From a phage, in sequence record PZ179880.1: 64,000 nucleotides of DNA; one strand, given 5' to 3'. The notes under the pieces are model-generated. The model saw nothing but the letters and a program-made list of their open reading frames with translations, had not been told where the DNA came from and searched no databases. This document shows, in pieces, positions 48,625 to 51,086 of the stretch (the first letter of the stretch is position 1; every line of letters starts with the position of its first letter). The position numbers were made by a program, and so were the translations under genes.

Positions 48625-49202
48625 TTATACACTGATTCCGTAAGGGTTGTTACTTCATCTATTTTATACCAATGGGTTTCAACCATTTCACGCTTGCTTA
48701 TATCATCAAGAAAACTTGCATCTAATTGAACCGTTGAATTAACACGATGTCTTTTAACGATGCGAGAAACAACTACTTCATCTGCATAAGGTAATGCAGC
48801 ATATAACAGAGCGGGTCCGCCAATTACACTTACATTAGAATTCTGATCAAGCATAGCCTCGAATGGTGCATTAGGGCTTGACACTTGAATTGAACCGCCA
48901 GAAATGTAAGTTATGTACTGCTCCCATGTAATATAGAAATGTGCTAAATCACCATCTTTAGTTTCAGGATAATCACGCTCGAGGTCACACACTACAATAT
49001 GTCTACGACCTGGAAGTAATGTAGGCAATGACTGGAACGTTTTAGCACCCATAATCATAGTTGTACCTTCAGTACGAGCTTTAAAATTCTGGAGATCCTT
49101 TTTAACTCGTCCCCATGGTAAACCATCACCTAAACCGAATGCTAATTCATTAAAGCCTTCGACAGTTTTAGTTGGAGAATAAGCGAATACCAATTTAATC
49201 AT
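48621..49202 (-). CDS. frd: Dihydrofolate reductase
   Basis: 193-aa ORF, T4 Frd length; DHFR-like sequence. Confidence 0.93.
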
Positions 49203-49447
49203 TACGCAAAACCCCTTTCAATAAACCATTCAGTGGCTTTATTAGCGTCAAAGAATAATTCTTCATAAGTCTTTTCTTTGTTTTCAAAGACTGTCACACA
49301 AACACGTTGACATTCTCCACAGTATTCTTCTGACATACTCAAAGCGTCAGAAAACATTTCATTAAATTCATTTAAATCAGGATTATACAATGCGTTAAAA
49401 ATTGCATAATCAAATTCATCATTCATAAATTCAAATACAAAAATCAT
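49202..49447 (-). CDS. Hypothetical protein (frd-32 accessory cluster)
   Basis: 81-aa acidic ORF; start overlapping-coupled to frd. Confidence 0.6.
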
Positions 49448-49455
49448 ATTATCTC

Positions 49456-49791
49456 CTAATATAAAGGATCAGGAACATATCCACTGGCTTTAATCATTTT
49501 AATTAACGTTAACATTCCTTTATTAACTGCTCGTGAAATTTCATCAAAAACTTCATCACTAAAAAGTTCTAACACGCCCTTCTGAACTTTTAATTTACAG
49601 CCAACAATTTCGTCATCGCCTATAGTAAATTCGTTTCCGCCAATTCCGCCGAAAAACTTAATTGCACCAGTCAACTGCCTTCCACGAGAATATGGGTCGT
49701 GTGATAAAGTAATATGAGTCACCCCAGGTACAGTTTTAAATTGGCAGCGAATGTTTACTTGGGAAATTCCAGTTACATGAATGTCAGACAT
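49456..49791 (-). CDS. Hypothetical protein (frd-32 accessory cluster)
   Basis: 111-aa ORF. Confidence 0.6.
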   Translation of the reverse strand: MSDIHVTGISQVNIRCQFKTVPGVTHITLSHDPYSRGRQLTGAIKFFGGIGGNEFTIGDDEIVGCKLKVQKGVLELFSDEVFDEISRAVNKGMLTLIKMIKASGYVPDPLY

Positions 49792-49801
49792 AATATTTTC
49801 C

Positions 49802-50101
49802 TCAGACGGACTTTTTCACAATTTTCCAATCGGCTTTAAACTGTTCAACGTCAGAATGGTAAATCCAGAATCCTGCGCTTTCTCCATCCTCATAAAGAGG
49901 GCATCCATCACATTCATCTTCCCACCCCATGTCACGTAAAAGATGTTCAGCTTTTTCAACAAGTTCAGAATCTTTACCGATGATATTAAAATACCATTTA
50001 CCTTTAACTTCTGAATCTTTGATGCTCTGACGTTGTAATCTCATTTTATTCTCCTTAGTTGATAAGGCTATAGTATCACTACCATAGCCCGTTGTAAACA
50101 A
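49802..50101 (-). CDS. Hypothetical protein (frd-32 accessory cluster)
   Basis: 99-aa ORF; start uncertain. Confidence 0.55.
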   Translation of the reverse strand: MFTTGYGSDTIALSTKENKMRLQRQSIKDSEVKGKWYFNIIGKDSELVEKAEHLLRDMGWEDECDGCPLYEDGESAGFWIYHSDVEQFKADWKIVKKSV

Positions 50102-50404
50102 TTATTTTTGAATTTTATCGAGCCACTTACCAAGCTTAATCATTTCTTTAGTAGCCTTTTCCATACTTCTGAACTTAACCAATAGAGGATAGGTATCGAC
50201 ACCCATAACTAAACTGGTTACAAGACTGTGTTCACCCACAAGCCATAACGAATACGTTTGAATATCGAGTCCGTAATTTCTGTCTTTATGGACCCGTACA
50301 CCCATCACTTCAAATTTCTCACTAGCTTTTTCTACCGCATCCAGGAAATCATCTTTAGTCATATTAGGCCTTAAAAGTTTTTCGCAAAAGTTCAATGATT
50401 TCAT
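50102..50404 (-). CDS. Hypothetical protein (frd-32 accessory cluster)
   Basis: 100-aa ORF. Confidence 0.55.
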   Translation of the reverse strand: MKSLNFCEKLLRPNMTKDDFLDAVEKASEKFEVMGVRVHKDRNYGLDIQTYSLWLVGEHSLVTSLVMGVDTYPLLVKFRSMEKATKEMIKLGKWLDKIQK

Positions 50405-50765
50405 CTACATTGTTTTCGTCTACAATGCAGTGAATTTTTGTTACGCCAGAAACCTTGTCTTCGACTTCATCTTCTTCAGAAGTCGGTTCTTTATACTCGC
50501 GGAAACAATAAAACTCTTCTTCACTAAGTTCAAAATAATCATCACCTATGCCATCATTATAATAGATTTCGCCATTAGCACAAATGATTTCGGTTACATA
50601 ATCAAAGCCATCTAAACTTGATATTGATTTAACTTCAAACCAACCGCCATTTTCTTGAATGATGCTGACCATATTAGCATTTGATGAACTAATATCAATG
50701 AAAGATTTAATACGGTGTGGATTTAACTCATATTTTTTGCCGATTTCCATTTTGATTTTCCTCAT
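50364..50765 (-). CDS. Hypothetical protein (frd-32 accessory cluster)
   Basis: 133-aa acidic ORF. Confidence 0.55.
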   Translation of the reverse strand: MRKIKMEIGKKYELNPHRIKSFIDISSSNANMVSIIQENGGWFEVKSISSLDGFDYVTEIICANGEIYYNDGIGDDYFELSEEEFYCFREYKEPTSEEDEVEDKVSGVTKIHCIVDENNVDEIIELLRKTFKA

Positions 50766-50795
50766 TTTAACGGGACTGTAATAGCCCCTTGATAA

Positions 50796-51086
50796 TTATT
50801 GTTCAATCAGTCCCATATAAAATTCTGCGTCTTCAGAATCCATGCCATCACAGTATTCATTAGCCATAAAGCGGGTGAGGTCTTCAAGAGGACCTTCAAT
50901 AACGATTTGAATACTCCAAAACTTAGAATCTTGCACATTTGTGATTCTAAGTTCAGGATAACGATTACGAATAATTTCTTCAATATATTCAAAATCAACG
51001 ATGTCAATATCAACTTTAGCCATGTTATTTTCCTCTTTAATCATCAGCAGTATTGCCGATAGTTGTATAGTACCATAGAAGAGCAA
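50796..51086 (-). CDS. Hypothetical protein (frd-32 accessory cluster)
   Basis: 96-aa ORF; the true start may be the internal Met (MAKVDIDIV...). Confidence 0.55.

Follow-up and report, generated by a model that had tools for sequence, protein, structure and literature searches.

The 64-kb window analysed here (64,000 nucleotides of sequence record PZ179880.1) comes from the genome of a T4-like (Tequatrovirus) phage, and six small genes fill the interval between its frd gene and gene 32. Our analysis indicates that this interval is probably (at a probability of about 0.6) the well-known variable 32-frd region of the T-even phages, made of six early genes, of which three, named C, E and F below, are optional. 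The products would be binding-type modulators, and the gene content would be exchanged by shuffling of the PeSL type (early promoter plus stem-loop). Comparison of sequences identifies the six-gene block as an ordinary, already known variable region composed of catalogued families. A first-pass annotation, made from the letters of the window, had noted that small early genes in such plastic regions often encode host-takeover or anti-defence factors; searches of families, sequences, structures and the literature neither supported nor contradicted this reading.

Three T4 genes and three optional genes lie between frd and gene 32

All genes in the part of the window that runs from nrdA to rnh lie on the minus strand, in the order nrdA, nrdA.1, nrdA.2, td, an open reading frame (ORF) of 65 amino acids (aa), frd, the six small ORFs, 32, 59, 33, dsbA and rnh. 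Between frd (48621-49202) and gene 32 (51172-52080), the interval is filled by the six co-oriented minus-strand ORFs that the first-pass annotation had picked out (49202-51086), which follow one another, from the gene 32 side, as frd.3, frd.2, C, frd.1, E and F. Start codons were set from the Shine-Dalgarno (SD) context, taken as the 22 nucleotides (nt) before each candidate start, together with the annotation of orthologues. The lengths of 81-133 aa first given for the six are correct for the mechanical ORFs, four of which begin upstream of the likely start, but not for the corrected genes, which encode proteins of 75-128 aa (75, 128, 86, 80, 111 and 81 aa in the order below).

50796-51023, minus strand: frd.3 orthologue, 75 aa, isoelectric point (pI) 4.05, SD GAGG 8 nt upstream of the ATG
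50364-50750, minus strand: frd.2 orthologue, 128 aa, pI 4.29, SD GAGG, second ATG as the likely start
50102-50362, minus strand: gene C (accessory), 86 aa, pI 7.95, SD AAGG
49802-50044, minus strand: frd.1 orthologue, 80 aa, pI 4.94, CDGC motif, SD AAGGAG
49456-49791, minus strand: gene E (accessory, DUF7247), 111 aa, pI 6.82, SD GAGG
49202-49447, minus strand: gene F (accessory), 81 aa, pI 4.05, motif CGEC-x3-C, SD AGGAG

Several of the ORFs had been described as acidic, and indeed four of the products have a pI of 4.05-4.94 (4.05, 4.29, 4.94 and 4.05 for Frd.3, Frd.2, Frd.1 and F); C and E, by contrast, are close to neutral. No transmembrane-like hydrophobic segment was detected in the six products (maximum KD19 at most 1.21), and no paralogy was found among them.

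A synteny comparison with T4, T2, AR1, Ptacy1496, Shfl2 and JS98 resolved the block into three T4 orthologues and three extra genes; a ribosome-binding site precedes every one of the six. The expectation that T4 would have fewer ORFs here was borne out, its 32-frd interval holding only frd.3, frd.2 and frd.1 (NP_049853, NP_049852 and NP_049851). Identity of the window products to T4 Frd.3, Frd.2 and Frd.1 is 97%, 95% and 99%, respectively, and C, E and F have no T4 orthologue. The endonuclease gene segG, suggested as a further resident of the same T4 interval, was misplaced: in T4, it sits between 59 and 32, where the window has only a 99-nt gap (52081-52179) without segG. Ptacy1496, the closest relative in the frd-32 interval, carries a homing endonuclease after gene 32.

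The six ORFs are protein-coding genes

We conclude that all six ORFs are real protein-coding genes, because they have SD sites, are intact in hundreds of phages and bear the mark of purifying selection. Searches with tblastn found the intact gene in 1418 phage records for frd.1, 888 for frd.2, 737 for frd.3, 487 for E, 452 for F and 352 for C. The ratio of non-synonymous to synonymous substitution rates (dN/dS), calculated pairwise against diverged alleles by the Nei-Gojobori method, ranged from 0.03 to 0.68 over the six genes. The values were lowest for C (0.03, against JS98), F (0.06-0.07) and frd.1 (0.08), followed by frd.2 (0.10-0.33), frd.3 (0.20-0.43) and E (0.15-0.68). At least one of the T4 orthologues is expressed, since frd.3 mRNA is listed among the most abundant T4 RNAs capped with nicotinamide adenine dinucleotide (bioRxiv 2024.04.04.588121).

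These data also bear on the opposite view, in which the six include ORFs that arose by chance or are decaying remains, for example of a homing endonuclease such as segG. Long ORFs appear readily in a region that is AT-rich like this one, four of the mechanical ORFs exceed the real genes in length, and T4 does hold a decayed remnant of E. However, SD sites are present at all six genes, which are intact with low dN/dS in hundreds of genomes; none of the six matched a GIY-YIG, HNH or other endonuclease family, and the segG gene of T4 lies on the opposite side of gene 32. The conservation and the substitution pattern already refute an origin by chance or decay, which we regard as extremely improbable.

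T4 carries the scar of a deletion of E and F

The history of the optional genes was read from a four-way DNA alignment of the window, T4, T2 and AR1, complemented by targeted pairwise alignment. The T4 spacer between frd.1 and frd measures 71 nt and keeps the SD and ATG of E, followed by about 16 degenerate codons; this remnant shares 19/20 and 25/31 bases with E on either side of a 9-nt gap, and reads MYVIEIIQVSIRFQLK-stop. The final ~14 nt, which run from the end of F into the start of frd, are preserved in the spacer as well (13/14 identical). The T4 spacer is thus a scar, which indicates that T4 lost E and F and not that the window gained them, and we conclude from these alignments that T4 is the reduced form for both genes. 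The initial suggestion that part of the block is accessory is therefore right for C, E and F, all absent from T4, but its direction is reversed for E and F.

The other absences have different boundaries. T2 lacks E cleanly, its frd.1 stop being followed by the SD and start codon of F. C is missing from both T4 and T2; it is bounded on one side by the frd.2 stop codon and on the other by the promoter -35 element before frd.1. The initiation regions of E and frd.3 (49777-49803 and 51009-51035) form a 27-nt direct repeat with 74% identity (GAGGAAAATAnnATG... on the coding strand). Shared SD and start sequences could provide the short homologies that mediate deletions at SD sites in T2 and T4.

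A further length difference lies upstream of frd.1. Between the early promoter and the frd.1 SD, T4 (NC_000866; 4006-4143 of the T4 stretch compared, minus strand) and AR1 have an extra 84 nt, with an unannotated mini-ORF that has its own SD (GGAG) and encodes the 22-aa hydrophobic peptide MFAPYIMAAVMLVCLYLLIKAC. This segment is missing in the window (50045-50064) and in T2.

The interval is a new combination of known alleles

C, E and F occur in several arrangements. T2 and Shfl2 share a four-gene layout (frd.3, frd.2, frd.1 and F). Among the best 40 megablast records, most cover 100% of the 2.1-kb query and have at least six hypothetical genes beneath the match, as in RB18, RB27, G4507, PhiZZ6 and Ozark. 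With the F-E-frd.1-C segment as blastn query, 80 records hold at least 80% of the segment in one place, and subsets of it (F, E and frd.1; frd.1 and C; F and frd.1) are found in many other records. Taken together, these comparisons mark C, E and F as optional genes, which T-even phages carry in many different combinations.

The alleles themselves are also assorted. The frd.3 gene of the window is of the T4/T2 type (97%), AR1 and Ptacy1496 carrying an 84% allele. Its frd.2 is of the T4 type, and the T2 type is 64% identical, in line with two allele classes at ~95% and ~64%. E likewise falls into two classes (95% versus 64-68%); the window copy is of the Ptacy type (95%), the AR1 allele being 64% identical. 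From this pattern, we conclude that the window interval is a new combination of known alleles and not of new genes.

Several of the genes extend beyond the genus. The C protein is unchanged (100% identity) in AR1 and Ptacy1496, and its identity falls to 96.5% in Dhakavirus JS98, to 61% in Phapecoctavirus ESCO5 and to 42% in Webervirus mfs. Homologues are also present in Pectobacterium and Serratia phages and, in the loci fetched, always lie within arrays of small early ORFs. Cross-family spread is similar for frd.1 and E: frd.1 homologues reach Klebsiella siphophages of ~50 kb, and E is represented in T4-likes of Klebsiella and Enterobacter as well as in Phapecoctavirus. For F, almost all records are Tequatrovirus, including T2, at 95-99% identity (416 records). 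A functional link between C and Frd.1 or between C and E was considered and set aside: the homologues co-occur in Webervirus and Phapecoctavirus, yet they are not adjacent in the loci fetched.

The interval of Dhakavirus JS98 is rearranged and contains two frd.2 copies and C. The copies, frd.2a and frd.2b (1417-2175 of the JS98 stretch compared), are tandem and diverged, 30% and 62% identical to the window protein. JS98 frd.3 is placed after C and not before frd.2, so that this interval is rearranged as well as variable in content.

Putative early promoters and a possible PeSL-like cassette in the block

Four control elements on the minus strand were recognised in or next to the block.

51122-51149 (hairpin 51131-51149 plus T-run), minus strand: predicted intrinsic terminator of gene 32, GGGGACC-CTAGA-GGTCCCC, from the terminator scan
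51067-51096, minus strand: putative early promoter P1, GTTTACA-N14-TGG-TACTAT, before frd.3 and after the gene 32 terminator
50070-50099, minus strand: putative early promoter P2, GTTTACA-N14-TGA-TACTAT, between C and frd.1
50065-50090, minus strand: predicted hairpin over the -10 element of P2, 11 bp, folding free energy (dG) -15.6 kcal/mol, z -3.47, 0/200 shuffles as stable

The gene 32 terminator, whose hairpin precedes P1, forms the upstream boundary of the cluster; it is kept in T4, T2 and AR1 and also appears in the RNA fold. A GTTTAC element with an extended -10 is the signature of T4 early promoters. In the 64-kb window, the 15-base motif GTTTACA-N14-TGN-TACTAT is found just at P1 and P2, plus one site with one mismatch, for an expectation of 0.00 from shuffles, and its -35 and extended -10 are invariant in the window, T4, T2 and AR1. 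We therefore assign P1 and P2 as putative T4-type early promoters driving the block; both are intergenic and surrounded by AT-rich sequence.

P2 coincides with a stable secondary structure. T4, T2 and AR1 have an equivalent hairpin with different but mutually complementary arms, the T4 counterpart being 12 bp long, and the junction at which C is present or absent adjoins the -35 of P2. PeSLs, which combine a strong early promoter with a stem-loop, have been proposed as substrates of modular shuffling (Arbiol et al. 2010, PMC2839356; Comeau et al. 2014, PMC4122927). P2 and its hairpin would constitute a PeSL-like cassette placed before frd.1.

A second hairpin, GGGGCU-AUUAC-AGUCCC, was found in the gap between frd.3 and frd.2 (50751-50795, minus strand), with a dG of -9.3 kcal/mol for the 50-nt stretch and a z of -2.0. 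Part of it is tandemly duplicated in AR1 (GGGTTATCAAGGGGCTATCAAGCCCC). This hairpin may serve in attenuation or in RNA processing. Scans for Rfam families and for repeats in the interval returned just short chance repeats and a sub-threshold beta_tmRNA match at 48554-48723 (minus strand), inside frd and the 65-aa ORF, which scored 17.5 bits against a gathering score of 84 and was regarded as noise.

The block is continuous with the nucleotide-metabolism genes

Downstream of P2, no terminator is predicted between frd.1, E, F, frd, the 65-aa ORF and td. The genes follow each other tightly, with stops inside or adjoining the ribosome-binding site of the next gene: the SD of E contains the frd.1 stop, that of F contains the E stop, and the stop codon of F and the start codon of frd overlap (TAATG). 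This organisation suggests co-transcription and partial translational coupling of the small genes with the nucleotide-metabolism genes.

Such continuity would also be expected if the small proteins were accessory subunits or regulators of the nucleotide-synthesis and replication machinery (dihydrofolate reductase, thymidylate synthase, gp32), co-expressed and assembling with these neighbours. The run from frd.1 to td, free of terminators and with overlapping stop and start signals, fits this idea, as does the position between 32 and frd, kept from Tequatrovirus to Dhakavirus and to the T4-likes of Klebsiella, Enterobacter and Edwardsiella. In addition, frd.2 was the only T4 gene of unknown function scored 'Fit' in a CRISPRi-ART screen, marginally so (score 0.83, p 0.027), frd.1 and frd.3 being 'Not fit' (PMC11879866). 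By contrast, T4 frd.2 amber mutants plate normally (PMC12152347), and the deoxynucleotide triphosphate and replication apparatus of T4 is fully functional without C, E and F. Moreover, homologues of C and frd.1 occur in siphophages of ~50 kb, among runs of small hypothetical ORFs and with no frd or td annotated in the 10-kb stretch fetched, and no sequence or structure links the six to nucleotide enzymes. We consider a role in the nucleotide machinery improbable.

The genes beyond frd differ among T-even phages. The 65-aa ORF (48427-48624, minus strand), between td and frd, is basic (pI 10.3), with a 4-nt overlap at the frd stop. Dhakavirus JS98 has an unannotated ORF of 98% identity in the corresponding position, and an ORF of Phapecoctavirus ESCO5 shows 42% identity. 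At the same junction, T2, AR1 and Shfl2 have a different, 115-aa ORF, and T4 has none, its td and frd overlapping. The td gene of the window is uninterrupted (47558-48418, 286 aa), without a group I intron or I-TevI; with segG also absent, two mobile elements of T4 are missing from this phage.

Protein families are catalogued without an assigned function

The first-pass annotation recognised no motif in the six ORFs. This stands insofar as no function is attached to any of them, but not for family membership, since four of the six match curated Pfam families and all six belong to PHROGs. The Pfam matches are far above the curated gathering score and cover nearly the whole profile: Phage_FRD3 (PF05798) for the frd.3 product (136 bits versus 28.1), FRD2 (PF03197) for the frd.2 product (130 bits versus 29), DUF5417 (which is Frd.1, PF17438) for the frd.1 product (114.2 bits versus 23.9) and DUF7247 (PF23905) for the E product (147.2 bits versus 27). 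C and F matched no Pfam family. The PHROG of each of the six is annotated as unknown function; C belongs to phrog_4423 (E-value 8.5e-50, positions 1-86 of 86) and F to phrog_3183 (E-value 1.4e-42, positions 1-80 of 80).

Among the six, only Frd.2 is connected with a proposed activity. From AlphaFold models, Frd.2, GoF and MotB.1 have been grouped as proteins with an N-terminal LSm/SH3-like barrel, defined as a bent five-stranded antiparallel beta-barrel at the N-terminus, and an RNA-related role was suggested (Kim et al. 2025, PMC12152347). In the same study, reporter RNA stability was raised only with the GoF(D25Y) mutant, wild-type GoF and MotB.1 having no effect. The window Frd.2 weakly matches the goF PHROG (E 8.9e-4), which is consistent with the LSm-like prediction. 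On the basis of its 95% identity to T4 Frd.2 and of the published models, the window protein is predicted to belong to this LSm-like family.

For the other proteins, searches of PDB chain sequences, with all six singly and with profiles for E and C, gave noise alone (E at least 0.37), and the NCBIfam and PADLOC scans gave sub-threshold noise alone. The AlphaFold2 model of C has an alpha-beta-beta-beta-alpha arrangement with a predicted local distance difference test score (pLDDT) of 70, and no significant structural neighbour. The model of E, built from a 17-sequence alignment, reached a pLDDT of 41 and was unusable. Domain fusions were sought with an E profile among 1.84 billion representative proteins; the 12 matches included no informative fusion, the genuine ones being stand-alone proteins of 99-113 aa. 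Three long matches were rejected as repetitive or chimeric sequences with many spurious Pfam matches. We found no paper on DUF7247, DUF5417 or the PHROG identifiers, and nothing on the frd-32 locus in the HIDEN-SEQ preprint, a T4 omics paper or an accessory-gene preprint. In conclusion, family, sequence and structure searches assign no function to C, E, F, Frd.1 and Frd.3.

A counter-defence role is possible for C, E or F

The optional genes raise the question of whether C, E or F, or more than one of them, encodes an anti-defence factor: a small early protein that binds and inactivates an immune system restricted to certain strains of E. coli or Shigella. The patchy distribution would then arise because the target immune system is confined to some strains: presence and absence vary among otherwise near-identical phages, and C homologues recur in unrelated phage groups, each time within small-early-ORF arrays. 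F and Frd.3 are strongly acidic (pI 4.05), as are many protein or DNA mimics.

The divergence of E points in the same direction. Over codons 1-50, the E classes differ by 22 non-synonymous and 8 synonymous changes, a ratio of the corresponding proportions (pN/pS) of 0.88, but this value is based on ~30 substitutions and fits relaxed constraint equally well. The adjacent F has a dN/dS of 0.07 between the same two phages that differ in E, and the E alleles look mosaic. The spread of C, E and frd.1, together with the E alleles, would fit mobile, fast-evolving accessory genes, and relaxed constraint fits equally. F, by contrast, is almost invariant, which is not an arms-race pattern.

There are precedents in related phages. 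The HIDEN-SEQ preprint names, as anti-defence genes of T4 and of the Tequatrovirus Bas37, nrdC.1, bas37_0203, bas37_0260, alt and a glucosyltransferase, the first three having once been T-even genes of unknown function. However, these genome-wide screens of T4 and Bas37 on clinical isolates name no gene of the locus among their highlighted hits, and the term 'frd' is absent from the main text. No homology to a described inhibitor was detected in Pfam, PHROGs, NCBIfam, PADLOC or PDB sequences, no dedicated anti-defence library having been searched, and comparison of the C model with BFVD returned nothing at E <= 0.001. An anti-defence activity that targets strain-specific immunity is thus a possible but unlikely explanation.

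More broadly, we only tentatively suggest that C, E or F, or more than one of them, is an unrecognised counter-defence or host-takeover factor. C and E are the best candidates, C because it has moved almost unchanged between unrelated phage families (96.5%, Tequatrovirus versus Dhakavirus), and E because the differences among its co-circulating alleles in the N-terminal half are mostly replacements of amino acids. If this is true, the loss of E and F would contribute to the host-range differences between T4 and other T-even phages.

A working model for the variable interval

We favour the reading of the interval as the variable 32-frd region with early, partly optional modulator genes. The six genes would be transcribed immediately after infection, the early transcripts running on into frd and td. 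The products would be non-essential, in line with the T4 frd.2 amber mutants and the CRISPRi-ART scores of frd.1, frd.2 and frd.3. Because of their small size, their charge and the absence of enzyme signatures, they would be binding-type modulators of host or phage macromolecules and not enzymes; for Frd.2, the target would be RNA, contacted through the predicted LSm/SH3-like barrel. The gene content would be reshuffled between co-infecting phages by recombination at short conserved sequences, namely the promoter/stem-loop and the ribosome-binding sites.

Several observations weigh against parts of this model. The modulator role is deduced from size, charge and missing enzyme signatures, the AlphaFold2 structures of E (pLDDT 41) and C (no significant neighbour) back no mechanism, and the RNA-binding role of Frd.2 is itself a published prediction. 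PeSL-mediated exchange is proposed from one junction, that of C; the ends of the deletions of E and F in T4 and of E in T2 fall in SD or coding sequences and not at a PeSL cassette. Finally, a generic sigma-70 scan showed no enrichment over shuffles (13 sites found versus 15 expected), so that the assignment of P1 and P2 depends on the longer T4-type motif and on the conservation of that motif.

For T-even biology, the reduced state of T4 has a practical consequence: since T4 is deleted for E and F, conserved genes are lacking from catalogues of T-even early genes that are based on T4. Being compact, well conserved and cheaply testable, C, E and F are candidates for screens of small early proteins.

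Comparison with known systems

Many sequenced T-even phages already contain the genes, the families and this exact arrangement, and the region corresponds to the textbook plastic periphery of T4-type genomes. The closest counterparts are AR1 and Ptacy1496, in which the six genes of the window are annotated in identical order; these two and the matching megablast records share 91-96% DNA identity over the whole 2.1 kb. T4 has frd.3-frd.2-frd.1 at the same position, in the same order and on the same strand, with the same early promoter and gene 32 terminator upstream. Relative to T4, the window has three more genes, C following frd.2 and the pair E and F separating frd.1 from frd, but lacks the 84-nt segment that T4 and AR1 have upstream of frd.1. 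The 128-aa protein of the window is 95% identical to its orthologue T4 Frd.2, which founded the GoF/MotB.1/Frd.2 family together with GoF and MotB.1. As in the PeSLs, P2 combines a putative sigma-70-like early promoter with a stable stem-loop overlapping the -10, between small, probably non-essential ORFs; it differs from them in that its stem is of mixed sequence. The C junction adjoins P2, and the T4 deletion of E and F uses no such cassette.

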